A stretch of 64,000 bases of DNA. Source: Nemertoderma westbladi. Lineage: Eukaryota; Animalia; Xenacoelomorpha. The stretch spans positions 1 to 64,000 of the forward strand of contig JAUCBJ010007043.1 in assembly GCA_032718475.1 (NCBI GenBank). The letters are read 5' to 3'. Under the pieces are notes generated by a model. It was not told the DNA's origin and ran no database searches. It saw only the letters and a program-made list of their open reading frames with translations. Shown here piece by piece: positions 12,673 through 64,000 of this stretch (position 1 is its first letter; each line of letters opens with the position of its first letter). The position numbers and the translations under genes are program-made.

Positions 12673-12769
12673 AAAATTATTTTAAATGTCTCATAAAACT
12701 TATCGTATTGAAGGTTAATTGGTATCGCAACCAAAGGTTAGGTCGCGAAGTAAACTACCGTATCAACGG

Positions 12770-23700: not shown

Positions 23701-23931
23701 GGAATTTCAAGTGGATATCACAGAGCACTGGCCACATACCCCCTGCCACAGCTACGTTCAATTATAAACTTCAAATACAGAACTACATCCATCACTGAAC
23801 GTATCTGCACTGCCAGCCCCTCACAAAATGATTTCCATAATGCAAACTTCATACAGAACTGCTTCCGACTACAAAACACTAACATCAAACAAAAACGCGC
23901 CCGTATCATGGAATTCTATAATGTCAAATGA
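20778..23931 (+). pseudogene. LINE ORF2 (APE endonuclease + reverse transcriptase) with one frameshift and one in-frame stop
   Basis: CDIV and IQEHWL are split across frames near 20983. TAA at 22561-22563 lies between YRPV and SISLLAKV. Confidence 0.9.
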
Positions 23932-30180: not shown

Positions 30181-30269
30181 GCATTTCTAAAGAAAATGAC
30201 TTCAATCATCAACAATCAATCGTGTTCGGACGTCGATTGCAGCGGAACTCCCCCCAGAACAGTACGGTT

Positions 30270-31445
30270 TCTCACCAGGCAAGTCAACGACTGATGCAAT
30301 CAATATACTTCTCAAGGAAATTGAAAATGCACTTAAGTCACCTCGGCGATCCGACCGAAAAATGTATGCACTATTTGTCGACTTCCAAAAGGCGTTCGAC
30401 TGCGTGAACAGAACAGTTCTTCTGCCCAAGCCCAAGATATACAAGTTCGGTATAAAGGGAAAATTATTCAATCTTGTACGAGACCTGCTACATAACTACA
30501 TCCGAGTTTCTGAGACTGGGAGACTGTTTCTCTCCAACCTGTTTCATGATTTGCATTGCGGACCTGGCGATAGTTCTACGACATCATACGATATCAATTT
30601 TCTAAAATTCTTATTTTACGCTGACGACCTGGTTATTTTCTCCCCGGACAAAGAAGGGATTCAACAAGCTTTGAATATTTTACATAGGTGTACGGAAAAT
30701 GCTGTGGAAGTAAACCTGATTAAAACAAAAATAATAAAATTTCGAAAAGCGGGACGATTAACTCAATCCGACAAATTTACATATGGTGAAAATAATATTA
30801 CAATCTGTAACAGCTACGAATATTTAAGAGTAACATTACAACCTTCTCTCTGCTTTACCCAACACGTCAAAAACAAAAAGAAGAAAGCATATTGCGTTAT
30901 CGGGTCTCTAATTAATCTTCCCCAAGTCTCAATCGAAACTGGAATTAAAATATTCAATATGAAAATACACCCTATGGTTACATACTTTCCCACCTACTAA
31001 CTCTCTCTCACCTCAAAGAACTGGATAGAATTAAATCAATGTTTATAAAACGTATGCTCTGTTTACATAAATCCGCCTCCGCAACTTTAGCACTACACTT
31101 GGTTAACGAAGACTTTCATTGAAGATATAATCGAAAAATTCCCAAACTCTTTCCGAAATTCTAGAACAATACAAAGAATTCAGACGACTGCGTGAACTGA
31201 ACTTTGAAGTGCAGAAGTATCGTAACGGTCCAGCGTTCGAATCTCTATCTTGGAAATTAGCCAAACAGAATAACCGTCATGTAGTAACCAGGGCAACAGC
31301 ACATGGATTCCAACAAAAACCCCACCCCTTTCATGATCTAGACTCGACCTGTATCTGTCGATTCTGTATCAACCCTGCTCTTATCGGTATCACTGTCTAG
31401 AATGTCCGACGGCTCCAAAATTGTCGCAGCTTGCATCTAGTTAAA
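30270..31445 (+). mobile_element. Degraded LINE RT and 3' fragment with an internal deletion
   Basis: YALFVDFQKAFDCVNR ... FLFYADDLVIFS ... YEYL, then WKLAKQNNRHVVTRATAHGF...CICRFC. The QG..LSP motif is not recognisable. Confidence 0.85.
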
Positions 31446-32409: not shown

Positions 32410-33441
32410 TTAGCTCAATTTAGAAGGTTTCCTTTCCTCGATGGGAATAACCGACCAATTGGGTGATCGTTTATCTTTCGACAGCCAATCAAAGTCGTCC
32501 AAATTATCCCAATTATTGACTGCGCGGTTGAGACCGGCCAACATGTAGTATCCATCCAAACCGGGATGCTCCCAGTCGCTAGGGGCAACACGGATCCCAT
32601 GACAACCCTCTATGATACAGCGTGACGTCACGTGTATGTACAGATCGGTATCTAGGGAGGAATGGACCCGAATCTGTTGGGCTGCGAGATCGAGTCTGGA
32701 TGCGAGAACGTTGTCAACGAGAACCGAGCCGCTGGTGGGCCCGCAGACAATCCGACAGTCTCTCGCGTTCGCTATATGCACGCTGGATGGCGCTCCCAAC
32801 ACGATGACGTCACAATCGACGAGGTTCTCCAACCGGATGTCCCGCTGATTAACCTCCTTCTCCGATAAGGTCAACGACCTCGCGGTCAAATCGAACAAAC
32901 CGAAACCAGAGGAACTTATTAAACGCGATTTACTTTCAGTTTCGCGGAATTTGCTTTCAGTTTCGAGACTTACATCCTGTGTTTTCGGTGCTGCTTTTTT
33001 CTCTCTTCCTCCTTTGAAGGCGAACTTTTTCTTCGGGATTAGTCGTCCCCGGAGTTCCCCTGTCGAGTTTCGTAGCTCGTCTAGGTCGGTCTGCGCGCGC
33101 TTAACATCGTAGGAGGGGAGGTAGAGACCGGCGTCTGTGAGTCGCTTCTGCAACGCGTCCAGTCGGCAGTAGATCGCGTCGAAGTGGTCCGATAGCCCGG
33201 GTTTATCCACCACGGAACTCCTCGCTAATAAACCGTCGATCTCATCCCGATCCCGCGAGAAACTACAGAAGAATAAATCGCGATCCTCGTCGAGGGTTTT
33301 ATTCAACGTCGCGTTCGTTTTACGAACTTCGCTGTTGGTTTTTATTTGCTCTCGACGTTTTTGTATTTTATCGATGACGTCTTTCTCTTTTTTAAGTTTC
33401 TCGTTACGGTCAACCCCGTTACGCGGTATAACTTCCTCCAT
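32410..33441 (-). CDS. TBCC: Tubulin-specific chaperone C (tubulin-folding cofactor C), single-exon ORF
   Basis: N-terminal helical region with LPSYD and LIPKKKFAFK. C-CAP domain with GPTSGSV, AQQIRVH, HVTSRCIIEGC and NNWDNLDDFDWL...SPNW. Confidence 0.96.
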   Translation of the reverse strand: MEEVIPRNGVDRNEKLKKEKDVIDKIQKRREQIKTNSEVRKTNATLNKTLDEDRDLFFCSFSRDRDEIDGLLARSSVVDKPGLSDHFDAIYCRLDALQKRLTDAGLYLPSYDVKRAQTDLDELRNSTGELRGRLIPKKKFAFKGGREKKAAPKTQDVSLETESKFRETESKSRLISSSGFGLFDLTARSLTLSEKEVNQRDIRLENLVDCDVIVLGAPSSVHIANARDCRIVCGPTSGSVLVDNVLASRLDLAAQQIRVHSSLDTDLYIHVTSRCIIEGCHGIRVAPSDWEHPGLDGYYMLAGLNRAVNNWDNLDDFDWLSKDKRSPNWSVIPIEERKPSKLS

Positions 33442-33707
33442 CGCTACTTAAGATTCTTGAGGCAATTTATATTTCACGGCGTAAATTAGATTAAAATATG
33501 ACGGCGGCCAAATTAGGTTATATTATATATCACCTGATCTTTTGTTACTTTGGTTACATTATTATTATTATTCAATACAGCAGGTTTCGTTTTAGACTCT
33601 ATTAACCTAAACAAAAGTAAACTTAATGAACCAGATTATGACTAATTTAGCCTATGCATTGATACATTGCATACCGTTGCCACTAGGTCTACTTCTACCG
33701 TTACCAA

Positions 33708-35799: not shown

Positions 35800-38700
35800 A
35801 ACCTGATATCAAACCTCATTTAAAAACTTAAATCACAGTAATCTGATATCTCTCACCTACCATAAATTGATATCACGCATGACACTGATATCTCAAAACT
35901 GAAATCACACACTAAAACTGATACCACACACTAAACTGATATCACAAACTAAATTTATATAACGCAGTAAGCTGATATCACTAGAATGATATGTATATCA
36001 TCCCATGCTTAACTGATATCACACATTAAATTGATATCACGCAGTGATCTGATATATCACATACCAAACTGATATTACAAAAGTGATATCACTCATTAAA
36101 CTGATAAATATCACACACAAAATTGATATATCCAACAAACTGATACTACAAAATTGATGTCACGCAAGAAACTGATATTACGCAGTAATCTGATATCACT
36201 CACTAATCTGATATCAAGAACAAAAGTAATATCGCTAACTCAACTAATATATCACACACTAAAGGTATATTACTAAAGTGATACCACTCACTACTGATAT
36301 CACACACTGATGTCACTCACCTAACTGATATCACTCACTACTGATATCACACACTAAAGGGATATTACTAAACTGATACCACTCACTACTGATATCACAC
36401 ACTGATGTCACTCACCTAACTGATATCACTCACTACTGATATCACACACTAAAGGGATATTACTAAACTGATACCACTCACTACTGATATCACACACTGA
36501 TGTCACTCACCTAACTCATATCACTCACTACTGATATCACACACTGATGTCACTCACCTAACTCATATCACTCACTACTGATATCACACACTGATGTCAC
36601 TCACCTAACTGATATCACTCACTACTGATATCACACACTGATGTCACTCACCTAACTGATATCACTCACTACTGATATCACACACTGATGTCACTCACCT
36701 AACTGATATCACTCACTACTGATATCACACACTGATGTCACTCACCTAACTGATATCACGCACTACTGATATCACACACTGATGTCACTCACCTAACTCA
36801 TATCACTCACTACTGATATCACACACTGATGTCACTCACCTAACTCATATCACTCACTACTGATATCACACACTAAAGGTATATTACTAAACTGATACCA
36901 CTCACTACTGATATCACACACTGATGTCACTCACCTAACTGATATCACGCACTACTGATATCACACACTGATGTCACTCACCTAACTCATATCACTCACT
37001 ACTGATATCACACACTGATGTCACTCACCTAACTCATATCACTCACTACTGATATCACACACTAAAGGGATATTACTAAACTGATACCACTCACTACTGA
37101 TATCACACACTGATGTCACTCACCTATCTCATATCACTCACTACTGATATCACACACTGATGTCACTCACCTAACTCATATCACTCACTACTGATATCAC
37201 ACACTGATGTCACTCACCTAACTCATATCACTCACTACTGATATCACACACTAAAGGGATATTACTAAACTGATACCACTCACTACTGATATCACACACT
37301 GATGTCACTCACCTAACTCATATCACTCACTACTGATATCACACACTGATGTCACTCACCTAACTCATATCACTCACTACTGATATCACACACTGATGTC
37401 ACTCACCTAACTCATATCACTCACTACTGATATCACACACTAAAGGGATATTACTAAACTGATACCACTCACTACTGATATCACACACTGATGTCACTCA
37501 CCTAACTGATACCACTCACTACTGATATCACACACTGATGTCACTCACCTAACTGATACCACTCACTACTGATATCACACACTGATGTCACTCACCTAAC
37601 TGATATCACTCACTACTGATATCACACACTGATGTCACTCACCTAACTGATACCACTCACTACTGATATCACACACTGATGTCACTCACCTAACTCATAT
37701 CACTCACTACTGATATCACACACTGATGTCACTCACCTAACTCATACCACTCACTACTGATATCACACACTGATGTCACTCACCTAACTCATATCACTCA
37801 CTACTGATATCACACACTAAAGGGATATTACTAAACTGATACCACTCACTACTGATATCACACACTGATGTCACTCACCTAACTCATATCACTCACTACT
37901 GATATCACACACTGATGTCACTCACCTAACTCATATCACTCACTACTGATATCACACACTGATGTCACTCACCTAACTCATATCACTCACTACTGATATC
38001 ACACACTGATGTCACTCACCTAACTCATATCACTCACTACTGATATCACACACTGATGTCACTCACCTAACTCATACCACTCACTACTGATATCACACAC
38101 TGATGTCACTCACCTAACTCATATCACTCACTACTGATATCACACACTGATGTCACTCACCTAACTCATATCACTCACTACTGATATCACACACTGATGT
38201 CACTCACCTAACTCATATCACTCACTACTGATATCACACACTGATGTCACTCACCTAACTCATACCACTCACTACTGATATCACACACTGATGTCACTCA
38301 CCTAACTCATATCACTCACTACTGATATCACACACTGATGTCACTCACCTAACTCATATCACTCACTACTGATATCACACACTGATGTCACTCACCTAAC
38401 TCATACCACTCACTACTGATATCACACACTGATGTCACTCACCTAACTCATATCACTCACTACTGATATCACACACTGATGTCACTCACCTAACTGATAT
38501 CACTCACTACTGATATCACACACTGATGTCACTCACCTAACTGATATCACTCACTACTGATATCACACACTGATGTCACTCACCTAACTCATATCACTCA
38601 CTACTGATATCACACACTGATGTCACTCACCTAACTCATACCACTCACTACTGATATCACACACTGATGTCACTCACCTAACTCATATCACTCACTACTG

Positions 38701-41700
38701 ATATCACACACTGATGTCACTCACCTAACTCATATCACTCACTACTGATATCACACACTGATGTCACTCACCTAACTCATACCACTCACTACTGATATCA
38801 CACACTGATGTCACTCACCTAACTGATATCACTCACTACTGATATCACACACTGATGTCACTCACCTAACTGATATCACTCACTACTGATATCACACACT
38901 GATGTCACTCACCTAACTGATATCACTCACTACTGATATCACACACTGATGTCACTCACCTAACTGATATCACTCACTACTGATATCACACACTGATGTC
39001 ACTCACCTAACTCATATCACTCACTACTGATATCACACACTGATGTCACTCACCTAACTCATACCACTCACTACTGATATCACACACTGATGTCACTCAC
39101 CTAACTCATATCACTCACTACTGATATCACACACTAAAGGGATATTACTAAACTGATACCACTCACTACTGATATCACACACTGATGTCACTCACCTAAC
39201 TCATATCACTCACTACTGATATCACACACTGATGTCACTCACCTAACTCATATCACTCACTACTGATATCACACACTGATGTCACTCACCTAACTCATAT
39301 CACTCACTACTGATATCACACACTGATGTCACTCACCTAACTCATATCACTCACTACTGATATCACACACTAAAGGGATATTACTAAACTGATACCACTC
39401 ACTACTGATATCACACACTGATGTCACTCACCTAACTCATATCACTCACTACTGATATCACACACTGATGTCACTCACCTAACTCATATCACTCACTACT
39501 GATATCACACACTGATGTCACTCACCTAACTCATATCACTCACTACTGATATCACACACTAAAGGGATATTACTAAACTGATACCACTCACTACTGATAT
39601 CACACACTGATGTCACTCACCTAACTCATATCACTCACTACTGATATCACACACTGATGTCACTCACCTAACTCATATCACTCACTACTGATATCACACA
39701 CTAAAGGGATATTACTAAACTGATACCACTCACTACTGATATCACACACTGATGTCACTCACCTAACTCATATCACTCACTACTGATATCACACACTGAT
39801 GTCACTCACCTAACTCATATCACTCACTACTGATATCACACACTGATGTCACTCACCTAACTCATATCACTCACTACTGATATCACACACTAAAGGGATA
39901 TTACTAAACTGATACCACTCACTACTGATATCACACACTGATGTCACTCACCTAACTCATATCACTCACTACTGATATCACACACTGATGTCACTCACCT
40001 AACTCATATCACTCACTACTGATATCACACACTGATGTCACTCACCTAACTGATATCACTCACTACTGATATCACACACTGATGTCACTCACCTAACTCA
40101 TACCACTCACTACTGATATCACACACTGATGTCACTCACCTAACTCATATCACTCACTACTGATATCACACACTAAAGGGATATTACTAAACTGATACCA
40201 CTCACTACTGATATCACACACTGATGTCACTCACCTAACTCATATCACTCACTACTGATATCACACACTGATGTCACTCACCTAACTCATATCACTCACT
40301 ACTGATATCACACACTGATGTCACTCACCTAACTCATATCACTCACTACTGATATCACACACTGATGTCACTCACCTAACTCATATCACTCACTACTGAT
40401 ATCACACACTAAAGGGATATTACTAAACTGATACCACTCACTACTGATATCACACACTGATGTCACTCACCTAACTCATATCACTCACTACTGATATCAC
40501 ACACTGATGTCACTCACCTAACTCATATCACTCACTACTGATATCACACACTGATGTCACTCACCTAACTCATATCACTCACTACTGATATCACACACTG
40601 ATGTCACTCACCTAACTCATATCACTCACTACTGATATCACACACTAAAGGGATATTACTAAACTGATACCACTCACTACTGATATCACACACTGATGTC
40701 ACTCACCTAACTCATATCACTCACTACTGATATCACACACTAAAGGGATATTACTAAACTGATACCACTCACTACTGATATCACACACTGATGTCACTCA
40801 CCTAACTCATATCACTCACTACTGATATCACACACTGATGTCACTCACCTAACTGATATCACTCACTACTGATATCACACACTAAAGGGATATTACTAAA
40901 CTGATACCACTCACTACTGATATCACACACTGATGTCACTCACCTAACTCATATCACTCACTACTGATATCACACACTGATGTCACTCACCTAACTCATA
41001 TCACTCACTACTGATATCACACACTAAAGGGATATTACTAAACTGATACCACTCACTACTGATATCACACACTGATGTCACTCACCTAACTCATATCACT
41101 CACTACTGATATCACACACTAAAGTGATATTCACCTAAACTGATACCACTCACTACTGATATCACACACTGATGTCACTCACCTAACTCATATCACTCAC
41201 TACTGATATCACACACTGATGTCACTCACCTAACTCATATCACTCACTACTGATATCACACACTGATGTCACTCACCTAACTCATATCACTCACTACTGA
41301 TATCACACACTGATGTCACTCACCTAACTCATATCACTCACTACTGATATCACACACTGATGTCACTCACCTAACTGATACCACTCACTACTGATATCAC
41401 ACACTGATGTCACTCACCTAACTCATATCTCTCACTACTGATATCACACACTGATGTCACTCACCTAACTCATATCACTCACTACTGATATCACACACTG
41501 ATGTCACTCACCTAACTCATATCACTCACTACTGATATCACACACTAAAGGGATATTACTAAACTGATACCACTCACTACTGATATCACACACTGATGTC
41601 ACTCACCTAACTCATATCACTCACTACTGATATCACACACTAAAGGGATATTACTAAACTGATACCACTCACTACTGATATCACACACTGATGTCACTCA

Positions 41701-42645
41701 CCTAACTCATATCACTCACTACTGATATCACACACTGATGTCACTCACCTAACTCATATCACTCACTACTGATATCACACACTGATGTCACTCACCTAAC
41801 TCATATCACTCACTACTGATATCACACACTGATGTCACTCACCTAACTCATATCACTCACTACTGATATCACACACTAAAGGGATATTACTAAACTGATA
41901 CCACTCACTACTGATATCACACACTGATGTCACTCACCTAACTCATATCACTCACTACTGATATCACACACTGATGTCACTCACCTAACTCATATCACTC
42001 ACTACTGATATCACACACTAAAGGGATATTACTAAACTGATACCACTCACTACTGATATCACACACTGATGTCACTCACCTAACTCATATCACTCACTAC
42101 TGATATCACACACTGATGTCACTCACCTAACTCATATCACTCACTACTGATATCACACACTGATGTCACTCACCTAACTCATATCACTCACTACTGATAT
42201 CACACACTAAAGGGATATTACTAAACTGATACCACTCACTACTGATATCACACACTGATGTCACTCACCTAACTGATACCACTCACTACTGATATCACAC
42301 ACTGATGTCACTCACCTAACTGATATCACTCACTACTGATATCACACACTGATGTCACTCACCTAACTGATATCACTCACTACTGATATCACACACTGAT
42401 GTCACTCACCTAACTGTTATCACACACAAACTCAGTAAAATAATATCACGCACTCAACTGATATCACACACAAACTGATATCACATACTAAACTTACTAA
42501 TATCACAAATACACTAATACCACTCACTAATCTGATATCACACACGAAAGTGATATCGCACGATAAACTGATATCACATACTAAACTAATAGCACTAAAC
42601 TGATATTACACACAAACTGATATCATATACTAAATGTGATACAAC
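35800..42645. repeat. 47/48-bp satellite (about 130 units, about 36280-42420) with flanks of degenerate 18-bp-like monomers
   Basis: Unit A is ACTGATATCACACACTGATGTCACTCACCTAACTCATATCACTCACT (47 bp). Unit B is ACTGATATCACACACTAAAGGGATATTACTAAACTGATACCACTCACT (48 bp). Confidence 0.97.
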
Positions 42646-45065
42646 ACACTAAACTGATACCACGCACTAAACTGATACCACGCACTAAACTGATACCACG
42701 CACTAAACTGATACCTCGCACTAAACTGATACCACGCACTAAACTGATACCACGCACTAAACTGATACCACGCACTAAACTGATACCACGCACTAAACTG
42801 ATACCCCGCACTAAACTGATACCACGCACTAAACTGATACCACACACTAAACCGATACCACGCACTAAACTGATACCACGCACTAAACTGATACCACGCA
42901 CTAAACTGATACCACGCACTAAACTGATACCTCGCACTAAACTGATACCACGCACTAAACTGATACCACGCACTAAACTGATACCTCGCACTAAACTGAT
43001 AACACGCACTAAACTGATACCACGCACTAAACTGATACCACGCACTAAACTGATACCACGCACTAAACTGATACCCCGCACTAAACTGATACCACGCACT
43101 AAACTGATACCACACACTAAACCGATACCACGCACTAAACTGATACCACGCACTAAACTGATACCACGCACTAAACTGATACCACTCACTCAACTGATAC
43201 CACGCACTAAACTGATACCACACACTAAACCGATACCACGCACTAAACTGATACCACGCACTAAACTGATACCACGCACTAAACTGATACCACTCACTCA
43301 ACTGATACCACGCACTAAACTGATACCACGCACTAAACTGATACCACGCACTAAACTGATACCACGCACTAAACTGATACCACGCACTAAACTGATACCA
43401 CGCACTAAACTGATACCACGCACTAAACTGATACCCCGCACTAAACTGATACCACGCACTAAACTGATACCACACACTAAACCGATACCACGCACTAAAC
43501 TGATACCACGCACTAAACTGATACCACTCACTCAACTGATACCACGCACTAAACTGATACCACGCACTAAACTGATACCACGCACTAAACTGATACCACG
43601 CACTAAACTGATACCACGCACCAAACTGATACCACGCACTAAACTGATACCACGCACTAAACTGATACCACTCACTCAACTGATACCACGCACTAAACTG
43701 ATACCACGCACTAAACTGATACCACGCACTAAACTGATACCACGCACTAAACTGATACCACGCACTAAACTGATACCACGCACTAAACTGATACCACGCA
43801 CTAAACTGATACCACGCACTAAACTGATACCACGCACTAAACTGATACCACGCACTAAACTGATACCACGCACTAAACTGATACCACGCACTAAACTGAT
43901 ACCACGCACTAAACTGATACCACGCACTAAACTGATACCACGCACTAAACTGATACCACGCACTAAACTGATACCACGCACTAAACTGATACCACGCACT
44001 AAACTGATACCACGCACTAAACTGATACCACGCACTAAACTGATACCACGCACTAATCTGATACCACGCACTAAACTGATACCACGCACTAAACTGATAC
44101 CACGCACTAAACTGATACCACGCACTAAACTGATACCACGCACTAAACTGATACCACGCACTAAACTGATACCACGCACTAAACTGATACCACGCACTAA
44201 ACTGATACCACGCACTAAACTGATACCACGCACTAAACTGATACCACTCACTCAACTGATACCACGCACTAAAGTGATATCGCACAATAAACTGATATCA
44301 CATACTAAACTAATATGCTACTAATCTAAAACTAAACTGATACCATGCACTAAACTGATACCACGCACTAAACTGATACCACGCACTAAACTGATACCAC
44401 GCACTAAACTGATACCACGCACTAAAGTGATATCACGCACTAAAGTGATATCACGCACTAAACTGATACCACGCACTAAACTGATACCACGCACTAAACT
44501 GATACCACGCACTCAACTGATACCACGCACTAAACTGATACCACGCACTCAACTGATACCACGCACTAAACTGATACCACGCACTAAACTGATACCACGC
44601 ATTAAACTGATACCACGCATTAAACTGATACCACGCACTAAACTGATACCACGCACTAAACTGATACCACGCACTAAACTGATACCACGCACTAAACTGA
44701 TACCACGCACTAAACTGATACCACGCACTAAACTGATACCACGCACTAAACTGATACCACGCACTAAACTGATACCACGCACTAATCTGATACCACGCAC
44801 TAAACTGATACCACGCACTAAACTGATACCACGCACTAAACTGATACCACGCACTAAACTGATACCACGCACTAAACTGATACCACGCACTAAACTGATA
44901 CCACGCACTAAACTGATACCACGCACTAAACTGATACCACGCACTAAACTGATACCACGCACTAAACTGATACCACGCACTAAACTGATACCACGCACTA
45001 AACTGATACCACGCACTAAACTGATACCACGCACTAAACTGATACCACGCACTCAACTGATATCA
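42646..45065. repeat. 18-bp satellite (ACTAAACTGATACCACGC)n in two blocks with a short degenerate interruption at about 44270-44335
   Basis: Directly visible; produces the TKLIPR / AWYQFS / RGISLV repeat ORFs. Confidence 0.98.
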
Positions 45066-48000
45066 CTCTTCAACGAATTCAGCAGAGATCGACGAATCGA
45101 ATACGTTGTTTCTAAAAGGTGATGCTCGGTTTAATGGATTTGGTGAAAGTGAGATATGGACTCATATCTACTGCAGGTAGTAGCTATTGGTGGATAGGGG
45201 TGGGTTGGTAATGAGATTTATATTATTAGACCAAACTTTAAATAAACTTTATTTATGACATCTCTGAACTTTATTAAATAAGTTTAGAACAACTTTATTA
45301 AATAAGTTTAGAATAACTATATTAAATAATTTTAGAACAACTTTATTAAATAAGTTTAGAATAACTTTACAACAAATAGTTTCAATATAATACCTTTATT
45401 TATAAGGATAGGTTCAATAGACATTCATATTCTTATTTTTAGAAAAAAAAAATGTATATAATGCGCTGTAGCTCTTCTCCGTAAACATATTAGAATTTGT
45501 ACCCTGGCCTTAAGCATTTTCCCAAGTGTAGTAAATGGTAAAAAGTTATTTATATCTCCTTAGCAACTGAGTATGTTCCACATCATGGGCGCTACCCCAC
45601 CCCACCCCCCCCCCCCCCCCCCCAAACCCTGTACACAATCCCTTTTATTTTTCAGATCGTACACTTATAGAGATCATCTGATCGTAAGAAGTTAACTTAT
45701 CAATATCTCAGAATTCCTTCTGAAATAAAATAAAATATGTTTATCTATTTCCTCTGTAATCCTTACATGTTAAGGGATTCAATTAGTTAGTTGATAAGGA
45801 GATATAGAATCAATCCTGGAAAAAGCACAATTCGAATTGATTCAAAGCAAATTGCGGTTTATTAGATTTATACTCTTAACAAAAATAGCCAATAGAAGCA
45901 AGGGAACTAATTACATGTCGGCGATACAATCGTAGAAATTCGAACTAAAGCGCCAATAAACAAACTAATAACTCAATAAAGTTTACAGTGTAGTAAGGGG
46001 GGGGGGGGGGGGGGGGGGATGGTCACAAAAATTATGAGCTTTGTGTATCTTATCTCGTGGAATATAAGATATTAGTTCTAAGATAATATAAATTATTATT
46101 TTTGTCTACATATCACAATGAGAACACTTGAAAGCTGATTGAGTAGAATTCGTTTTCAATATGATAGTCTTTGAAATAGGTGTGAAATATTATTCGTCTG
46201 GAACACTAAGTTATGAATATTAGACAAATTGTACTAGAATGTTTTACAATTAAATTGTCGCTTGTAGGTGATAAAACATACGCTCATATTTCAGCTACAC
46301 TTTAAACACTTTACATGACACTTTTAAAGATTTGGAATTCTAGTAGACTAACTTTCTGGGAATTATTACTTTGGTGCACAGCAGGGACCATCAGGGAATG
46401 TTTATACAGTTTATAGAGAAAGGAGCAGGTTACAGAGGCGGGATTTTCTAACCAAAACAATAAACAGTCACTTTACCAAATCAGGGAAAGGAGCAGGTTA
46501 CAGAGACGGGATTTTCTAACCAAAACAATAAACGATCATTTAAAAACCAAAGCAAGAAAACGCACAGTCAGAGGATAGGCAAGTCTGTAGACCGGTAATA
46601 CTGTAATACTAGGTACCGGCATGCTGTGTACGAAAGTAATAAGAGGGAGCTTTTCAAAACCTTGTTGCTCGTAGGTAAAGTAAATATTGAAAGCGAAAAT
46701 AAAATATGAATTACGGCTCTAAGGAGGACAGAGGTGAAACTATCTCTGTTTCAAATATCATATCCAGTTCTCAATGCGATCTGTATAAAAATTTGGTGGG
46801 GAGGGAAGAGGGGGGGGGGGGGGGGGGGGCTGGTCTGAAATAAGACTATATTCCAGGCAGGAGATGCTACAGAAAACCGACGCGAGTGAAAATGTTGACG
46901 TGAAAGCAACCTACCTCGATAATTTTTTTACGAGTGGGAATTTGGAAGAAAATAAGCAAGAAAGTAAATACGAACTGAGCGAATCAGGAAACCATGTCAG
47001 ACGGAGTTCATGAAAATAATCAGATTCTTAAACAAAAATTTAAATTACAGCAATAAAATAACTGTATATGAAATGTGTAGTAATAGGTCCAACATTTATT
47101 AAATAGACAATAAAAAAACCTGGGAGATGATTTAATGTTTAACTCGCTCCAATTAATTTTAAACAAAATATTTCATATTTTATCCACGTCTAATAAATGT
47201 TACATAAGTACATCGAAAAACATTACTGCAAAGAAAATCTTACTAAATAAATAGTAATTTATATTTTGTTTGAAATTTTTTACATTCTTTTTCTTGGATG
47301 CAATAATAACATTTTCCCACTATAATAATGCATTCAATTGACATAATTTTAAACTAATCTTATTCTGTATGCAATGTGTATGTATATATGTATAATACAT
47401 AATTACACATATACTTTATAGACATTACATATTACATACATAGATAAACAACAACAACCAGTTGCATAACGTTTACGTAACGATAAGTGATAAGAACAGA
47501 TACCTAAGCTGCCTCTAAAAAATTTTCGATTTTGTGCTTTATAATTATAAACAAATGTTATGTTTCAACAAGATTTTACTATTTGTTTATCATATATATG
47601 ACCAGAAACTTCATTTTAATTTAATGCAGACAGCCTGAAAGTAATACATATATATATATTGACATAAATTTCGGTTATTATTCTCAAATGTGTAGATAAT
47701 TATAAACACCACTGCAATTGCACTACGGGGTGAAATACAAACAACCGACAGCCATTAGACCCCATCAATTTGTCTGTCCCTGATTTATTTGAAAAAAAAA
47801 CGCGACACAAACGTACAGGCAAAATTTTAAGTTATAAAATATAACAAACGAAAAAATGTCAATATAATATAATATTAGTAATAAATTCCTTTTCTGAAAT
47901 ATTTTGTACACATAGGGCCTATTACAGATATACAAACTTTAAAACGTTGAATTTGTATTTTGTATATTCTCAGTAATTTAGTCAGTTCTTTCGACCCGAT

Positions 48001-48132: not shown

Positions 48133-49164
48133 TTAAAACCCGCCTCTCCCACGCCCCCCTCCGCGCTGGCCATAAGGGTGAGGTCTCATTGCACCGCGGC
48201 CCCCACCAGCCGGTGCCTTACCTCCTGGCCCACCCCTTCCTCGGGGCCCCCCACGCCCGCCCCCACGGCCCCCCGGAAAGCCCCCACCCCCCCTGAACCC
48301 CCGAGCACCGCCACCGAACCCACGCCCACCCCCAAACCCACCACCGCGGCCTCTCGGTGCGAAACCCTGATCCCCATAGCTTTGCTGCGCCTGAGAGAAA
48401 GAGTCGTACTCGCCTCCACCCATAACCTCATCACCTCCATCACCCATATAGTAACCTCCCCCTCCACCACCTCCATTATATTGCCCAGGCCCCATGATAC
48501 CTCCAAAGCCTCCCCCTCTCCCCCTACCTCGACCAACCCCACCTCGTCCACCCCGACCCCGGAACCCACCTCCCCTACCCCTATCCCCCCCACCTCGAGA
48601 ATACCCCCCTCCTGGCAGTTCATCCGGAACCAACAACTCGGTTAGATCTTTCAATGCGGCCGCCATGTTGGTGTATGCTTCGTGGGCTGACGCTTTGGTC
48701 TCTACCATCACGTGTTGATCGTAATTAAGGTGATGGTACTGGGGGTCGCCGGATTGCCGACGCCGTTCCTCCTCACCTTTCTCCCGGATCGTCCCACGGC
48801 CCAGCAAATAAATACGACATTTTGTACTCTTTATCAAATTCTTCAAGGTGGTGCCCTGAGGTCCCAATATTTTACCCAAGAAATTATAGCCAGGGTAGGT
48901 ATTAAATGGCATTAAAACTCTTTTTCGCAGGGTTATTTCGGGGTGAGGTTCATCGACACTCACCCAATCGTCGGGTTGGATTTCGTTCACCTCATCTGGG
49001 AGGCGGAATACTTTCGGGCCGCCTCCAGGCTGCGGCGCCTGATGGCCTCCAGCCTCATACTCAGTGTCAACACCAACCGATGTGTCAAAATGATTCGGTT
49101 GATCTAACTCTGGTTCCAAAGCCCCGGTTGTCAGAGGGTCGTCTGATGCAAAATCTGGTTCCAT
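48133..49164 (-). CDS. KHDRBS: KHDRBS/Sam68-like STAR-family KH RNA-binding protein with RGG-rich C-terminus, single-exon ORF
   Basis: YNFLGKILGPQGTTLK...LGRGTIREKGEEE...GDPQYHHLNYDQHV...AY..MAAAL...LVPD matches the Sam68/SLM KH domain. RPHPYG resembles the Sam68 REHPYG PY-NLS. Confidence 0.9.
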   Translation of the reverse strand: MEPDFASDDPLTTGALEPELDQPNHFDTSVGVDTEYEAGGHQAPQPGGGPKVFRLPDEVNEIQPDDWVSVDEPHPEITLRKRVLMPFNTYPGYNFLGKILGPQGTTLKNLIKSTKCRIYLLGRGTIREKGEEERRRQSGDPQYHHLNYDQHVMVETKASAHEAYTNMAAALKDLTELLVPDELPGGGYSRGGGDRGRGGGFRGRGGRGGVGRGRGRGGGFGGIMGPGQYNGGGGGGGYYMGDGGDEVMGGGEYDSFSQAQQSYGDQGFAPRGRGGGFGGGRGFGGGARGFRGGGGFPGGRGGGRGGPRGRGGPGGKAPAGGGRGAMRPHPYGQRGGGRGRGGF

Positions 49165-53257: not shown

Positions 53258-56200
53258 AATAACAGTTTTAAGAAAAAAGGTCTGCATTTTTTGCACTTAA
53301 ACGCACGATCTCTGCTTCCAAAACCTTCCGAAATTCGTATTTTAATCAATAAATCCAACCCAGCAGTTTTAACAATCTCTGAAACTTGGCTCGATGATAG
53401 TGTTTCTGATGGAGAAATTTATATTGATAATTACGTAGTTTTACGTAAGGATAGGGACAGACACGGTGGTGGTGTCTGTACTTACATTCGATGTGATTTA
53501 GCTTTTAATCGTAGGGAAGATTTAGAGACTTGTGACGAAGTTTTACTGGTGGAACTTTTACTTCCTAAAACTAAACCTATTTTAATCGGTACTTTATATC
53601 GGCCCCCTAAACAATCAGATTTTTTGCAAAATTTTGAAAATACAATTTTATGTAATCTTAGGTCAGACTGTGAAATATATTTCTTAGGTGATTTTAATAT
53701 CTGTTACCATCACAAAGCATCCCCCATCTGTAAACAGTACCAAAGTATTTTAAATTTGTTTGGTTTAAAACAAATTATTCGAGATTCTACCAGAATTACC
53801 AGTAAAACTTCTACTTTACTAGATCACATCCTTTGTAATAATACCGATATTATTTCTCAATCTGGGGTTTTACCTATAGGTCTAAGCGATCATTTTATAG
53901 TTTTTTGCACAAGAAAGACACAAAAATCTTTTTTCGGGGATCATAAAACAGTAACAGTTAGGTCTATGAAAAATTACAGCAAGGAACGCTTTTTAAGTTT
54001 GTTAGTTAATTCTGACTGGGAACCCTGTTTTAAGGCCGCTGACATTAACCTTGCGTACACTGTTTTTAAAGATATATTTTTAAAGGCACTTAATACTGTA
54101 GCACCAATTAAAGAAATTAGTCTTAAACAACGCACTGAGCCCTGGATGACCTCGGGTATTCTTAGTAATATCAGAGAAAGAGATAACTATTTGTATAAAT
54201 TTAGGAAATACCGTGTTTTAGCTGATTATAATAATTACTGCAAATATAGAAACCTTGTCCAACGGGAAATAAAAAAAGCTAAATCTGAATATTTGTACAA
54301 CAAAATAAGTGAGAATAAAGATAATCCAAAAAGTCTATGGTCTACCCTAAAATCTTTAGGTTATAAAAACCTTAAATCTAAATCGAATATTGTTCTGCAA
54401 GATAACGGTGAGCTGATTCATGATCATACTCTAGTTAGTAATTTATTTAATAATTATTTTACTAATGTTGCCTCTAATTTAGTTAAGAAATTACCGTTAT
54501 CAAGTAATAAATATAGTATAGGGTCCGAAACTCTAAATAATTTTTATTTAGAAAAGTTACAAAATTCAGAAAAGTTATTTTTAAAACCCGTTTCTGAGGA
54601 TTTCGTTTTTAAAAATCTACTTAGCCTATCAGCCTCAAAAAGTACCGGTCTAGATCTAATACCTGCCCGTTTTCTTAAGGATGGTGCTGAAGTACTTAAA
54701 GTGCCTATTACTTTTATTATTAATTACTCTATCGTAGATAATGTAGTACCAGACGAACTGAAATTAGCTAAGGTTGTTCCTCTGTATAAAAAGAATAGTA
54801 AAGTAGAACCCTGTAATTACAGACCTGTTAGTATCTTAAGTATTGTATCTAAAATTCTAGAACGTTCTGTTTTTCTACAGCTGGAAGCACATCTTAGTAG
54901 GCTAAATCTGATCTATGAACTTCAGTCCGGTTTTCGTAAATCATATTCTACAGACACCTGCCTTATTAACTTAACTGATACAATTAGATGTAATAACGCA
55001 AAGGGTTTATATACTGGTATGGTAATGTTGGACCTACAAAAGGCTTTCGATACTGTAGATCACGAAATTCTGCTTGGTAAGTTAGGCCTGATGGGTGTAG
55101 GTTCTATAGACTGGTTCAAGTCCTACCTGTCAGACAGAGGTCAAACTGTAGTCATTAGCAAATCGCTGTCTACTGTACAAGAGATTACCTGTGGTGTACC
55201 GCAAGGTAGTATATTAGGTCCTCTGCTTTTTGTATGCTATGTAAATGATATGATAAGTAGTATAGATCCCGATTTTAAACTCATTTTATATGCCGACGAC
55301 AGTGCTCTTATTTTCTCTCATAAAGATCCTATCCATATTTCCCAAAAGTTAAGTGCAGTTCTAGAATCCTGTAATGAGTGGTTGGTTGATAATAAGCTAT
55401 CCATTCACTACGGTAAGACTGAAAGTATTTTGTTTGGTTCCAAAAGAAAGTTAAAGAAGGTAACTAAGTTTGAAGTCACTAGTAATGGACATAAGATTGA
55501 AAATAAAAAGGAAGTTAAATATTTAGGCGCCACATTGGATAACTGCTTATCAGGAGAAAGTACAGTGAAAAATATTTTCTCGAAAGTTAACAGTAGGCTT
55601 AGGTTTCTATACAGAAATAAAAATAGTTTGAACACCGACTCCCGCAAGTTACTTTGCTCTTCTTTAATACAGTGTCACATGGACTATGCGTGCTCTTCTT
55701 GGTATGAAGGCTTAACCAAACAGCTTAAATGTAAATTACAAGTAGCTCAGAATAAAGTAGTACGATTTATTAAAGACTACAAACCTAGGCACCACCTAAC
55801 TCCAGATGACTTTTCTGAATCTGGACTACTTAACTTAGATAGTAGAGTTAAGCAGCTACGCCTTAACCATGTGCATAAAGTGTATAATGGTAAATGTCCC
55901 AATTACCTAAAACAAAAATTCAACAGAGTACGCGATACACACTCTTACAGTACCAGAGCTAGTGCTTCAAACTTCTACCTCCCGAATTGTAAATCCTTTG
56001 AATCTGATACTTTCTTTTTTAACGGCATAAAAAATTGGAACGCTCTGCCTAATGAAATTAAAAACCTAAATAATCAACATTCTTTTAAATCTGCAGTTAA
56101 ATCTCACCTCCGTGTGCAATGTAAAAATAGGTACAATAGTCCTACAGTAAGTTATTAGTTTATTAATTATTTACTATTTATACTGTAATTACGTTTTATA

Positions 56201-57700: not shown

Positions 57701-57953
57701 TTGGAGAGCAATCTTTAATACGTAGGTCCTATATTAATTGTCGTACCTCAGGCTGTACATTTGTTAGTCTACCTATTTGCGTTTTCGTTTCTTCTCCTTA
57801 TTAACTTGGGCAATAGGTTTGTGATGTGCTCTAGTTCATTTTGTGCTATATTTTTATGTCCCAGAAACCTTTTAGTCAATAAACATATAATCTAATCAAT
57901 CTAGGAATCTAGCATGTTAAAGGTAGGTACGTTTTAGCGTAAAATTTACTCAC

Positions 57954-58277
57954 CCTGAACAGCAATTTCCAGTGATTTTTTGTAAAAATCAGAAATTTTG
58001 GGGCTCATCAAACCAACTTGGATAATATCGCAAGACGTTTCTCCACTTAAGTTAGCAGCATATTTTTTTATGATGGAGCAGTAATAGTACTGTTCTGATT
58101 TTTGGTCTTCAGAATGCTTCTGATCTTGTAAATCGTAATCCGCAATAAGACTTGCGGGTCCTCTGAACTCAATCTTTGATTGAATCCATCGAATGTTAGT
58201 TAGTAGTTGGTTCCTTTCCACCCAGAGATTTGCTTTCGCCATATGATCATCAAGGAAGTCAAGCATATATTTACCTA
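57954..58277 (-). CDS. Apaf-1-like helical domain 2 (HD2) exon of the caspase-NB-ARC gene
   Basis: KYMLDFLDDHMAKANLW...LLTNIRWIQSKIEFRGPASLIADY...DIIQVGLMSPKISDFYKKS aligns by eye with Apaf-1 YWYNFLAYHMASAKM...LDWIKAKTELVGPAHLIHEF...NIVQLGLCEPETSEVYQQA. Ends at a CAG G|GTGAGT donor. The 5' boundary is uncertain. Confidence 0.85.
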
Positions 58278-58977
58278 GTGTCTGCGGTTCCATATTATAA
58301 TAAAGTTTGAAATAGTTTAGCCAAATAAGTCCAGTAGACAATAATTAAAATTTATACCCCCGCACACAGCACAGGATAGAATAAACATGTAAAACCATGA
58401 TCCGGGAAGATTCATCAGAAACCCCAAACTGATCGCATCTCATCTCTATTAATAATGTCCGCAAAACCATCAGTAATAAACCTCAGAGAATCGGTCATCC
58501 TAAACCTGGGATAACGGACCTGCCACTACATATTCAGGGAATATACCCAATGCCACCCGACTCACACCGAACTCCTCAGCTGCGAATTGGTTCTCATTAC
58601 TCTCAGTCTGTTGACCTCTCCAGCCGATTTATTTAAAGAATCACAAGTTTAATTCAATATTCGAAAGACAAGATTTATTACACAGATTAAATAAAGATTA
58701 TATAATAATTTATAAAATTGGTCTAAATTGAAATATAGGAAAAAAACGTTTCGAAATAATATATAATAACTATTTAAAAAATATTTGTTATTTAATCAAA
58801 AAATGGTAAAATTACATGAATCAGATAAAAACAAAGTAAAAAAAACCCACTAAATATGCGGAGAGGCCGGGAGTTCTGCGCCGTCTTCAAAGCCTAGACA
58901 GCATCGTAACTTAATTGTGTAGCTTAATGCAGTGGGAGGCCCACCCACGGCAGACCCACTCCATTACCAGTCTATTA

Positions 58978-59266
58978 CTAAAAAAAAGCTTGAAAAAAAG
59001 CTCAAAAAATGCTTGAAAAAAAGCTTGAAAAAAAGCTCAAATATAGCTTGAAAAAAAGCTGAAAAAAACTTGAAAAAAAGCTCAAAAGAGCTTGAAAAAA
59101 AGCTCAAAAAAGCTTGAAAAAAGCTAAAAAAAAGCTGGGTCGAATATCATAATTATCTAATTCTATAACATTCATATTATATCTTCATTTTAACTGAACG
59201 TTCGAAAAGGCATAACAAGCCTGAAAAAAAGCTAGAAATAAAGCTCAAAAAAGCTACGGGCCTTAA
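58978..59266. repeat. (AAAAAAGCTTG/AAAAAAGCTC)n repeat ending GCTACGGGCC|TTAA, probable DNA-transposon end
   Basis: Directly visible. The partner terminus was not found. Confidence 0.65.
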
Positions 59267-59864
59267 GCGACGGATTCTTTGTGTCTAACAATATTTACCA
59301 TCGACTATTTTGTGAACATCAGTGCTGCGCATATTCCTTAATCACATCAGCAACGCAAATACTGTACGTCCCCTGTCGCCTGAGTTACCACCACATCATT
59401 GGTTATCTCAATCGATGTATTCCAGAACCGGCGATAATATATACTATTTCCAATGGTGAACCGATTCAAACTTCGTATGGGATAAAACTTTCGTTTCCCG
59501 AAGTTGAACTCGCTGATTTTGATGTAATACTCTTGCTAGTAATCCATCGTATCTGTCAGACAGATCCACAACTGACTGGGTTTTCCTGGGTGGAATGATA
59601 TATTTATACCACGTTTCGTGCATTTTATCTATAATCGGAACTTTCGAAAAACATTTACAAAGATCCATTGACGTGCTTCTGCCATAGCCAACTCAAGGTT
59701 AATCTCCCAAATCCAGCTATTTCCGCTATAGAATGTTAATCTTACTCCTAACACAAAATCGCGGTAATATTTGCCATTATTAATATTTTCAAAACTCAAA
59801 AACCAATATATTATATTTAAGGAAAAAATCATACAGTAAAAGGTTAGATTTATAGTGGGTAAAC

Positions 59865-60296
59865 GCTACGCCTTCGCCTACACACCTACTGTGCACATAA
59901 TAAACTACGCCTATGCGCCTACACGCCTACGCCTACGCCTACGCCTACGCCATCGCCATCGCCATCGCCATCGCCATCGCCATCGCCATCGCCATCGCCA
60001 TCGCCATCGCCATCGCCATCGCCATCGCCATCGCCATCGCCATCGCCATCGCCATCGCCATCGCCATCGCCATCGCCATCGCCATCGCCATCGCCATCGC
60101 CATCGCCATCGCCATCGCCATCGCCATCGCCATCGCCATCGCCATCGCCATCGCCATCGCCATCGCCATCGCCATCGCCATCGCCATCGCCATCGCCATC
60201 GCCATCGCCATCGCCATCGCCATCGCCATCGCCATCGCCATCGCCATCGCCATCGCCATCGCCATCGCCATCGCCATCGCCATCGCCATCGCCATG
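59865..60296. repeat. (TACGCC)n-(GCCATC)n compound microsatellite, about 58 perfect GCCATC units
   Basis: Directly visible. Lies about 20 bp inside the junction that ends the NB-ARC homology. Confidence 0.97.
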
Positions 60297-60318: not shown

Positions 60319-61883
60319 TTTATTGAATTATTATATTTCAACTTAGATATTTTTCTCGCATTTAATTGACATAGACGATCTTCAATATTGCTCCATGTTA
60401 CTTGAGGGTTGTATTTCTTTACGGCCCCTACAATATTGACTGCCAAAGGTGAGCCATGGCATTTAGATATTAAATGTTTAATTTCTGCCATCTTTGAAAT
60501 TTCTCTATCTCCAAGCCATTTTGAAAGTAACTCAGAACATTGAGGTTTATTTAATCCTACCGTAACATTAATTTCAGATACGTTATTTGAACAATCAGAA
60601 GAAATACAGTTCTTATCACGCGTTGTCAGCATAATTTGACAATTTATATCAAAAGCTTCTACTACAAATTCATCCCAAACATCATCCAATATTATCAAAA
60701 ACCGTTTTTTGGGATGGTTGTGAATAATTTTGTTCAATTCATTTCTACAGCTCTTAATACTAAACAACTGGCTGACTAAATGAGAACTTGTTTCATCTAA
60801 CATTAAACAGATTTCTTTCATTTTCTCCAGGAGACTATTTTCACCACCAAGACCAACTCCCAAAGGTCCAACATGCTGCCAAATGATCCCATCAGGAAAT
60901 GAGTTTATAATAACTTCATTATTTATTGCATCGAGAGCCAAAGTTGATTTTCCTATGGCGGGCATACCTGATATAACAACCCAACCTGGTTGATCTTTCA
61001 AATCAATCAAACATTTTCTAATGTTTTCTACCCATTCTGGACGAGGAATGTGAGGGTTAGGAACTTTTGGAACTCCCCAACGTTGAAGAAAAAATGTTGG
61101 AATTTCTGGAATGTATGATGAATGGAATGCTAAAAGGTGAACTGAGAACGACAAGTTGTCAAATACTTGTGGTCGCGAAACAATTGAACTCTCTTGAGTA
61201 CCGCGATGTACTATGTCATAATTCCTCAACAACGGTAGTAAATCAACTTTAACATCATCCCCAGCTGTGTCTTTATTTAATATATTATCAACTACTTTAC
61301 AAATAAGATGAATAAAATGCGTCCCTTGGTCTTGATAATTTGGTAGCTCCTCTCCTGGACTGCAACCGATTGCTACAGCTATATGCTCAAATTTACGATC
61401 ATTAAAATGTAAATTGAACTCCGGATAAGGGTTGGATTGACAGGCTTCTACAAAGAATATGCGAGGTTTTGATGGCGGACCACTTAGTGCCAAACATTCT
61501 GTTGAGAATAATTCCACAATATTTTTTATAAGAACATGTTGACCATTAGAACAAACAAGCTCACCTTCAATTCCGTGACTCATTAGGAACACAAATAAAC
61601 AATCAATCTCATCTAATTCTTTGCGATTACTAAAGTTTGTTAGGAATTGTATCAACTCATCATCTGTTATGTTCTTCTTCACTTCACCTTTCTCATCTAT
61701 ATATTCCTCTATTTCACAACCCAACTTACTCTTGCCTCCAAATATTTCCTTAATGCATTGTACATCATGTGATGACCCTTCTCCTCTGTTAGAGTATTTA
61801 GTACCACCATAATCTGTAATATTTATTATCAGACACAATTTTTTAACATCTCCTGTAATTTTATATGAGTTCGATTCTGCCAT
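60319..61883 (-). CDS. Caspase catalytic domain (p20+p10) fused to an Apaf-1-like NB-ARC (NBD + HD1); possibly a disrupted allele or copy
   Basis: Caspase motifs: LCLIIN, R.EGS..D, DCLFVFLMSHG, KPRIFFVEACQS, GTHFI, RPQVFDNL. NB-ARC motifs: GVP...R, PGWVVISGMPAIGKSTLA (Walker A), FPDGIIW, LIILDDVW (Walker B), CQIMLTTRDK, CHGSPLAV. About 520 codons with no stop. Confidence 0.93.
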
Positions 61884-62974
61884 AACATAGAATAAACTGT
61901 GTAGTTTATTGAGCCGTTGAGTTATGTTGCACGCAGGTAATTTATCAAGATATTACTACTATTGTCATTGTCAATAAAGTACAAAGTTGTTAAAGAGTTT
62001 ACAACTACTGTTAATTATAATTATAATGATGTACGCAAATATATAACAAAGCCTTCCTCAAGTGAGGAATTTAATCAACTTACTGCAGTGCCGGATTAAG
62101 CCTCTGGTGGCCCTAAGGCGCATTTTAGTAATATCCAAAAATGGCCCAAAAATTGATATTTTCCGCAAACCCTTTCAAAAGAAAAAGCTGCTAAAAACAA
62201 CTGAAATAATTGTGGAAATGTTGCGAAGGAAATATAAAGTATTTTCGTTGGATGACTGCGTGCAAATAAGTGCTGAGTACTTTAATAATAAGTACTTTGC
62301 AAAAATAGTTTTAATCAGTCGGTAAGAACTCCAAAATTGGACTTCAAGTCCAATTTTAGACTTCAAGTCTTTTTCAAGTTTTTTTTTTAGACTCCAAAGT
62401 CCAATTTTGGACTTTAGTACAACTCCAAGTGTACTGGTACCCATATGAGCATATGACTGTATGAATAGATCATAGAGATAGTACATCATGGCCCCAAACA
62501 GTCAAACACCCAGCCCAGACCCAATACTGAATACTGGAATAGCATACATAGCTGCATAACTTGCATAATGCATTAGTGTAGTGTAGTGTATATCGGTATT
62601 AAATCAATACTGCACTGTAATGGACTAGTACAGTGGTACTGGCAGACTGGTACATACATATTACAATATATTACAATTGCAATGCAACATTCTTTTAACG
62701 ATCAAATTAATTAATATAAGTAGATAAGCAGGGATGATCCACGTACAGTAGTTACTTTTTGCGGTAGTGGTATGGCTTTGCGGTAACCATAGCGATGTTT
62801 ACCGCAGTAGCGGTAGTTGAATTATACCTTAAATTGAAATTGAAATTGTTTAATTGACATCAAAAAAGTAAAGTAAATCTGCATAATCAAACATTACCGG
62901 TAAGAACAAGATATCAAGATAATCCATTATACAGGTCAGGTCAGGTATTCTAGGTCATTGATCAAGAAAACTTG

Positions 62975-64000
62975 CCACCTCCATGCAGCATAAAGGAGGT
63001 GCCACCTGTAGCTGCATAGACCCTCTTACTAGGGCAAATCTGGTCCTGTAACTAGGACCCCTTCGTTCTGGGATAAGGACGCCCCTGGTCCTGGATTAAA
63101 AACCCATATACTTGGCTGCAGGGGTATATGGCCTGACCAGGCAGATGGTGATCTACCAATGGCTGGTCAGGAGTAGAGTGTTCTCATGTCCACTCTGAGA
63201 GCACTTCACTGCGACCTGCACCTGGCAGCAAGGGTACAGAGCATGACCCAGCAGATGAGCTGCAACAGCCAATGGTGGGTCATGTGCGCCAGAGTAGATA
63301 TGGGTGATGGGCCTCATATCTGACTCCATTGCGACACCCACCCTGTGGAATGGCAAACCAGGGTGTGGTATTTGCCCCGAGAGCTGACTCGGCAAAAAAG
63401 CACCCCCCAACCCCCACTATGGATTACATTAGCAATGCGGAGGTCCGGCCACTAGAGGCCAGTGGAATTACCGGACACAATCGGTCTCACAGGCGTCAGT
63501 TAACTCCTGACCGGCTGCCTGTCTCACCCACTACTGGAGAGAGAGCAGCCAACAATTCTTTGAGTCCCTCTCCTGATGACCTTTCTGGCCCAAACCATGG
63601 GTCACCAGGAAGGCCCGATTGTGATGGGGAGAGGGATTCTGGAGTTGGAGGCTACTCTCATGTTCCACCCCGTCCAACAAGACCATTGGTGAATCTGAGG
63701 CAAGTCACAAGACTAGCCTCAGTAAACACCCTAACACTCGGGTCCCCAATGCGACAAGGTGAGCTGACTGCCTTGGCAGATAAGCTTTCTCTTAGCGCAG
63801 TGGGTGTTCAAGAGCACCGAATGCAGACTGGACAGACTGATGAGGTTCTGATTAAGGACATGGGGTGCGGTTGGCGACTCGCCCTTGCGTCAGCAGATGA
63901 TAGTGGCAATGGTGGAATTGGTCTATTGATGAATCCAACTGCACATGCAGCATTGGACAAAATAGACTAAATCTCTAACCGCATCATCCGTTGCCACTTC
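62975..64000 (+). mobile_element. 5' part of an RTE-like LINE (APE endonuclease N-terminus), truncated by the window end
   Basis: RLASVNTLTL...AVGVQEHR...GNGGIGLLM...ISNRII, with an in-frame TAA at 63968-63970. The 5' boundary is approximate. Confidence 0.8.

Follow-up and report, generated by a model that had tools for sequence, protein, structure and literature searches.

The window, a 64-kb stretch of DNA from Nemertoderma westbladi, contains on its minus strand an uninterrupted reading frame in which a caspase domain is followed by a short linker and an Apaf-1-type NB-ARC domain, and further downstream a separate block encoding helical domain 2 (HD2) of Apaf-1 (Table 1). Because a Delta-like EGF gene, a TBCC gene, a KH-domain gene and LINE reverse transcriptases are present, the window is animal DNA. 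The EGF-repeat region resembles the 3' exon of a Notch ligand Delta, and the KH-domain gene, presumably Sam68/QKI-like, would be either intronless or a retrocopy. Besides the LINE ORF2 listed in Table 1, more LINE-like frames were recognized by eye at 17913-23931, 30200-31000 and 63308-63970. Large minisatellite arrays (1-1222, 9580-10770, 12760-17342, 25514-28588, 29348-30183 and 36281-45066), with periods of 39, 35, 31, 58, 36, 47 and 18-36 nt, occupy about one third of the window. Directly upstream of the fusion gene lies a high-copy repeat (62069-62453), which contains short inverted repeats (62326-62414) and reaches a summed depth of thousands, compared with about 20-100 in unique DNA.

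Table 1. Features of the 64-kb Nemertoderma westbladi window, with strand and basis of assignment
Feature	Position	Strand	Basis
EGF repeats, transmembrane-like segment, intracellular tail ending near TTEV	2436-3986	+	Pfam/sequence
Tubulin-specific chaperone C gene, one frame, TBCC_N + TBCC	32410-33447	-	Pfam
KH-domain RNA-binding gene, RGG-rich tail, single open frame	48133-49164	-	Pfam KH-I_KHDC4-BBP, E 4e-9
LINE ORF2, 966 aa, nearly intact, endonuclease + reverse transcriptase	53258-56158	+	Pfam
HD2 block of Apaf-1	57946-58292	-	APAF1_C (PF17908), E 6.3e-17; own frame 58344-57949
Non-coding stretch at the expected winged-helix place	58293-59918	.	Pfam, profile, repeat and contig analysis
Hexamer microsatellite, 58 copies (59948-60295) + 4.8 variant copies, in-frame (GD)n(GV)n, then stop	59919-60296	-	Repeat and frame analysis
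Caspase-linker-NB-ARC frame, uninterrupted, 529 codons	60297-61883	-	Open reading frame + Pfam
Apaf-1-type NBD + HD1, aa 266-521, GVP present	60321-61088	-	Alignments, profile, tree
GSPLA motif	60455-60441	-	Motif search
TTRD motif (TTR at 60626-60618)	60626-60615	-	Motif search
Walker B, LDDVW	60689-60675	-	Motif search
Walker A, GMPAIGKST	60968-60942	-	Motif search
Linker, about 15 aa, at the position of the CARD-NBD linker	61089-61133	-	Alignment + junction contig
Caspase small subunit, aa 167-250, diverged	61134-61385	-	Pfam to aa 199; weak caspase-8 alignment
Caspase large subunit, aa 1-150	61434-61883	-	Alignment to caspases
Caspase Cys motif, FVEACQS	61454-61434	-	Motif search
Caspase His motif, MSHG	61583-61572	-	Motif search
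Arg33 (= Arg179); His103; Glu146 (= Gln283); Cys148 in EACQS	61787; 61577; 61448; 61442	-	Caspase alignment

The fused frame is free of stops between its ATG and the point where the microsatellite begins. Pfam assigned aa 14-199 to Peptidase_C14 (PF00656, E 5.8e-20) and aa 285-522 to NB-ARC (E 5.1e-28). When compared with the PDB, aa 4-155 gave animal caspases 3/6/7, 8 and 2 as best matches, the 60 matches listed for the protease part being caspases in all cases, and the top match to aa 266-499 was Apaf-1 (E 3e-35). These results agree with the original prediction, which had described a single continuous frame coding for a caspase and then an NB-ARC with likeness to Apaf-1; the catalytic His (in SHG) and Cys (in FVEACQS), the Walker A, Walker B, TTR and GSPLA motifs and the linker of about 15 residues that it had named were all located. 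Continuous coding through both domains therefore stands, but the exon end that had been placed at 60319 was not confirmed, since no good donor is found there. The combination of a caspase and an Apaf-1-type NB-ARC in one intronless animal frame is a genuine fusion. It possesses the NB-ARC with Walker A and B, sensor 1 and GxP of canonical Apaf-1, and it also corresponds to the Apaf-1-like proteins, described in the accessible part of PMC10959488 as having an unconventional N-terminal domain and a CARD-less NB-ARC derived from Apaf-1. Judged from its sequence, the fused protein is Apaf-1-like, and neither a canonical Apaf-1 nor a canonical caspase. Two single-sequence AlphaFold models had mean pLDDT values of 35 and 31.

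In the protease part, His103 and Cys148 align with the catalytic dyad of caspase-3 and caspase-8, and the short intersubunit linker contains Asp162. The end of the small subunit was placed by the usual C-terminal pattern of caspases and is probable. The S1 pocket of caspases is formed by Arg179, Gln283 and Arg341, whereas in para- and metacaspases the sites of Gln283 (Asp) and Arg341 (Asp/Glu) are acidic and Leu replaces Arg179, according to the accessible part of PMC2064784. In the fusion, Arg33 is kept at the first of these positions, the QACxG pentapeptide is replaced by EACQS so that Glu146 occupies the Gln283 position, and aa 173-190, which correspond to the Arg341-bearing loop, contain no Arg or Lys under either alignment register; this loop aligns weakly with SYRN of caspase-8, and its Arg341 site is occupied by Asn or Gln. 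Two of the three residues of the basic pocket are therefore changed. Because Gln283 is replaced by Glu and the Arg341 loop is devoid of Arg and Lys, ordinary caspase specificity for aspartate is unlikely, and the protease does not appear to be the ordinary caspase that had been supposed. With Glu replacing Gln283 only and Arg179 kept, the pocket would also fall short of a full paracaspase pocket. An altered pocket could signal a dead enzyme. In a rival reading, an Apaf-1-type ring would display a non-cutting caspase fold that binds and tunes real caspases or baits caspase inhibitors of pathogens. The change of QACxG to EACQS including Glu for Gln283, the loss of Arg341, the fast divergence of the family and the fact that the small subunit alone found no caspase in the PDB all favor such a decoy, but we consider it unlikely, as His103 and Cys148 are found in native motifs and Arg33 is kept, whereas known decoys such as cFLIP have lost the catalytic Cys. 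In addition, the Glu that replaces Gln283 is similar to the acidic residue found there in active para- and metacaspases, as far as the accessible text of PMC2064784 goes.

Support for the caspase/NB-ARC junction was sought among the contigs of those three of the six sequencing runs listed that contain the stretch, which represent two samples from two studies, one of the two samples possibly being the source of the window itself. In all three runs a 371-nt contig (60797-61167) crosses the junction with no differences, and a misassembly at this point was rejected on these grounds. Paralogues that share the junction are represented by two more, diverged contigs, which in each of the three runs match on either side of it. 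The first has joints at 60826/61060 and 61111/61220 and in run X1 is 1081 nt long at a depth of 31.9, its 233-nt piece at 61220-61452 showing 33 differences; the second has a joint at 60862/61147 and a depth of 26.3 in run X1. Both hold caspase and NB-ARC sequence, the bases between the matched pieces not being given, and copies that are about 15% diverged in DNA thus retain the junction. Similarity to other copies stops by about 61914. Several further diverged copies were seen for HD2 in the run contigs, and on their upstream side all five distinct loose ends listed (30 nt each, translated by hand) are free of stops in the HD2 frame, two of the five reading V-[ED]-P in register with M-E-P of the window. 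These open ends suggest coding capacity to a modest degree, as 30 stop-free bases are common by chance. At a depth of 30.5 in run X1, which is common to a 1884-nt HD2 contig and to joints in the caspase part, a single contig would by our estimate be about 180 nt too short, and the shared depth was therefore given no weight. As far as short pieces and joints with unread bases between them allow us to infer, other copies may be intact. Third codon positions account for 14 of 30 paralogue differences in HD2, 5 of 14 in the caspase small subunit and 5 of 9 in the large subunit, when the best-supported rows only are counted, a mild excess which hints weakly at selection.

The gene family is multi-copy and fast-changing, and decayed members may exist in it, since one paralogue contig in run X2 has several 1-nt indels at 61536-61548. 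One might go further and propose that the whole family consists of duplicated, decaying chimeric copies that are now functionless, as the window's allele is broken (see below), the surroundings are full of repeats and LINEs, and no two-domain relatives occurred among the database matches examined. We find this improbable, because the 529-codon frame is open and keeps its NB-ARC motifs and catalytic dyad intact despite a likeness of about 30-37% to its nearest relatives, because the diverged copies keep the junction, and because the hand-read loose ends are in frame.

Downstream of the NB-ARC, the copy in the window does not appear to be the intact scaffold that had been envisaged, as it lacks a winged-helix domain (WHD) and a usable donor. 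No GT is present between 60341 and 59949, and the nearest ones (60342, 60370, 60376 and 60401) are weak sites located where similarity to Apaf-1 still continues. Reading on through the (GD)n repeat, the frame meets a stop codon at 59921-59919, which predicts a product of 654 aa. As the 348-nt microsatellite is spanned by no read, it is the assembly that sets the order of the two coding blocks. A downstream HD2 exon had been predicted, and an HD2 block is indeed present, with full-length matches to animal Apaf-1 and the PF17908 domain of canonical Apaf-1, but a spliceable next exon was not confirmed, there being no good donor. In the stretch between the two blocks, which includes an A-rich array with a unit of 11-12 nt (58981-59136), Pfam gave no meaningful match. 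Apaf-1 from gar aligns via its residues 114-360 and 464-580 and not via 361-463, which correspond to the winged-helix domain. When the WHD was used as query against the intervening DNA, 92 of 200 shuffles scored as high, compared with none of 200 for the HD1 and HD2 controls, and a profile built from 17 Apaf-1 sequences found HD1 and HD2 in the window and no WHD, CARD or WD40. By these three analyses the winged-helix domain (about 110 aa or 340 nt) is absent from the whole window. A decayed winged-helix remnant proposed by eye at 58345-58640 was rejected in view of its shuffle-level score and the blank profile. At 58312-58955 there is essentially one contig per run, which gives no support to an interruption by a high-copy transposon in that part.

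The HD2 match to other copies starts abruptly near 58292. In run X1, one 1684-nt contig holds 57880-58955 including the joint 58292/58293, which shows that the break exists in one sample or more. Each of the two runs of sample S2 has a contig that agrees fully with the window over 57880-58292 and then continues with 230 unlike letters, and another that begins to match at 58296 after 231-233 unlike letters. If both S2 contigs belong to one haplotype, about 430 or more extra bases would be present where the WHD is missing. From this extra DNA we infer that the window's allele carries a deletion, the alternative being an extra insertion in S2. With the WHD gone, no good donor and a frame that stops at 654 aa, the window's copy is likely broken. 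It would be functional, or its model incomplete, if there were an upstream death-fold exon, if the WHD had been lost in assembly near the microsatellite, or if the 654-aa product were used as such. The window contains just 2.1 kb of upstream DNA, CAG at 61897 is a possible acceptor, and both the unspanned microsatellite and the extra S2 DNA at 58292/58296 leave room for missing sequence; we nevertheless hold this to be quite unlikely, as the upstream part within the window is blank for the CARD profile and Pfam, the ATG at 61883 lies just ahead of the conserved caspase start, similarity to the other copies ends soon upstream of it, and the X1 contig contains the break.

Replacement of the CARD by a caspase, as originally proposed, is consistent with the CARD profile, which detected nothing anywhere in the 64-kb window, and with the upstream part, which has no Pfam match up to 64000, where the window ends. 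WD40 repeats were detected neither by tblastn nor by profile in the whole window, although short diverged exons might escape such searches, and Pfam found none in 45.1-58.0 kb and 30.4-35.9 kb. The HD2 block terminates in GE-stop (TAA at 57948-57946), overlapping a possible GTGAGT donor, and the hand-read HD2 loose end of one paralogue has a stop eight codons beyond that of the window. In view of these two stops and the lack of a downstream WD40 exon, the family probably ends after HD2, without WD40. The intact architecture is probably caspase-NBD-HD1-WHD-HD2, with about 760 aa.

In order to trace the origin of the two parts, the fused protein was compared by HMMER with 1.84 billion representatives, which gave 2136 matches at E ≤ 0.001. 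In all of the best 150 of these, the best-matching stretch was in the NB-ARC part, and the caspase part was unmatched both in them and in 10 earlier matches (best E 0.88). A check for Peptidase_C14 plus NB-ARC, suggested with the original prediction, accordingly found no second carrier among the best 150 of the 2136 matches. Pfam, applied to 28 of those proteins, mostly ones with long N-termini, revealed trypsin, TIR, SIR2, EAD4 or CARD as N-terminal families and no Peptidase_C14 among the families listed, at most 25 per protein. The named top matches are animal Apaf-1 proteins with 30-37% identity, from a hemichordate, amphioxus, lamprey, fish, jellyfish, urchin, sponge, nemertean and horseshoe crab. 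Among the probably bacterial matches, P0065, P0070, P0073, P0102, P0129, P0134 and P0151 combine a trypsin-like protease with an Apaf-1-like NB-ARC, some of them with WHD, HD2 or WD40. The match P0015, named from the nemertean Tubulanus polymorphus, is a full-length Apaf-1-like protein and is of note because Apaf-1 is reported as lost from molluscs, from annelids and from brachiopods in the accessible part of PMC11463336. Word-based protein searches, which are insensitive, returned one match in one case and nine, including one fish Apaf-1, in another, and none for the caspase part. No relative turned up when metagenome and viral contigs were scanned by pattern, an exact look-up of three window proteins found none present, and no Atlas cluster scored at least 0.9, the best (0.88) being a bacterial CHAT-STAND.

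In a tree of the NB-ARC only (51 rows), the query is on a long branch (1.84) and has no well-supported place. In a tree of NB-ARC plus HD2 (28 rows), the query and 18 Apaf-1 rows are separated with 100/100 support from nine bacterial-type rows, so labelled after one named member and by their domain make-up, the query again being on a long branch. A bacterial origin was rejected on the basis of the caspase matches in the PDB, the Apaf-1 proteins among the top matches, the HD2 matches and the NB-ARC plus HD2 tree, with the long branch as a caveat. With the protease nearest to animal caspases and the ATPase and HD2 nearest to animal Apaf-1, an independent fusion of animal parts is likely.

No animal caspase-NB-ARC protein was found in the literature searched, which covered few subscription papers or supplementary domain tables and gave no match for the phrase 'caspase-NB-ARC', and such an animal fusion does not appear in the accessible parts of PMC11463336, PMC11747288, PMC3196919, PMC3879445, PMC6321704 and PMC8195603. 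The animal architecture is apparently undescribed so far and apparently works like known protease-STAND switches. The comparisons that follow concern the accessible parts of the sources cited. N-termini of Apaf-1 proteins are known to comprise CARD pairs, DD, DED and TIR (PMC2246300), and Apaf-1-like proteins are defined as CARD-less (PMC10959488). Such N-terminally swapped proteins share with the fusion an Apaf-1-type NBD, HD1 and HD2 and a lineage-specific expansion, but have interaction domains where the fusion has a protease; moreover, WD40 was not detected in the fusion and the window's allele lacks the WHD. Bacterial metacaspase-NACHT-WD40 proteins and two metacaspase-NB-ARC proteins of Chloroflexus (PMC3501461) likewise unite a caspase-fold protease and a STAND ATPase in a single polypeptide, whereas the fusion in the window is closest to animal caspases in its protease and to animal Apaf-1 in its ATPase and HD2. 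A cyanobacterial Peptidase_C14 plus nSTAND1 cluster (Atlas rank 6, score 0.84) is a lead only. In fungi, NLRs that carry a CHAT or S8 protease at the N-terminus control gasdermins (PMC12881547); those with CHAT resemble the fusion in that a clan CD cysteine protease serves as N-terminal output of a eukaryotic NLR-type switch, but CHAT is a family other than Peptidase_C14 and the fungal proteins have repeat sensors. The parts of the window that were scanned revealed no gasdermin gene. Amphioxus possesses TNFR-caspase, LRR-caspase and TIR-NB-ARC-WD40 proteins (PMC2575513). Its shortcut caspases, in which an animal caspase is joined directly to an upstream signalling module and adaptors are bypassed, offer a precedent for proximity activation through fusion, although they have a receptor domain and not NB-ARC as partner and have kept QACXG (PMC2575513).

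At a probability of roughly 0.55, we favor the reading that the sequences represent a multi-copy family whose intact members are likely one-piece apoptosomes with an active switch, the window's copy likely being broken. In Apaf-1, nucleotide exchange lets NBD-HD1-WHD modules build a ring. In an intact fusion protein, nucleotide exchange would open the switch and subunits would assemble into a ring in the manner of Apaf-1, with the short linker placing the caspase domains at the positions that CARDs have there. The tethered caspases, gathered by the ring, would dimerize and become active without CARD-CARD recruitment or adaptors, activation by proximity being plausible by analogy. The protease is predicted to have lost the preference for aspartate at P1, so that it would cut a dedicated target or itself and would not start the usual caspase cascade. 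Lacking a WD40 sensor, the fusion would be triggered via HD2 or via a partner, as in CED-4. The 654-aa product of the window's allele, devoid of WHD and HD2, is predicted to be unable to form a normal ring. The likeliest use of such proteins would be a fast-evolving immune or cell-death role.

The apoptosome scaffold of the animals studied so far is a protein distinct from the initiator caspase, to which it is joined via CARDs, and it is debated, and difficult to single out, whether the ring activates the caspase by dimerization or by allostery. A natural fusion with a linker of 15 residues, in which the ratio of the two is fixed at 1:1 and the CARD disk is gone, would make the proximity model directly testable; the value of the system hinges on an intact and expressed copy, which the window's copy probably is not. 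It would also provide a natural caspase whose specificity pocket is remodelled, and it would bring true animal caspases into the range of the protease-STAND fusions known from bacteria and fungi. Tentatively, Nemertoderma westbladi may belong to an animal lineage with an expanded family of single-chain apoptosomes, which have neither CARD nor WD40 and whose pocket would have shifted from aspartate toward an acidic, paracaspase-like one, in which the protease-STAND immune switch of bacteria and fungi would have been reinvented from the animal's own apoptosis parts and in which intact and broken alleles would be segregating.
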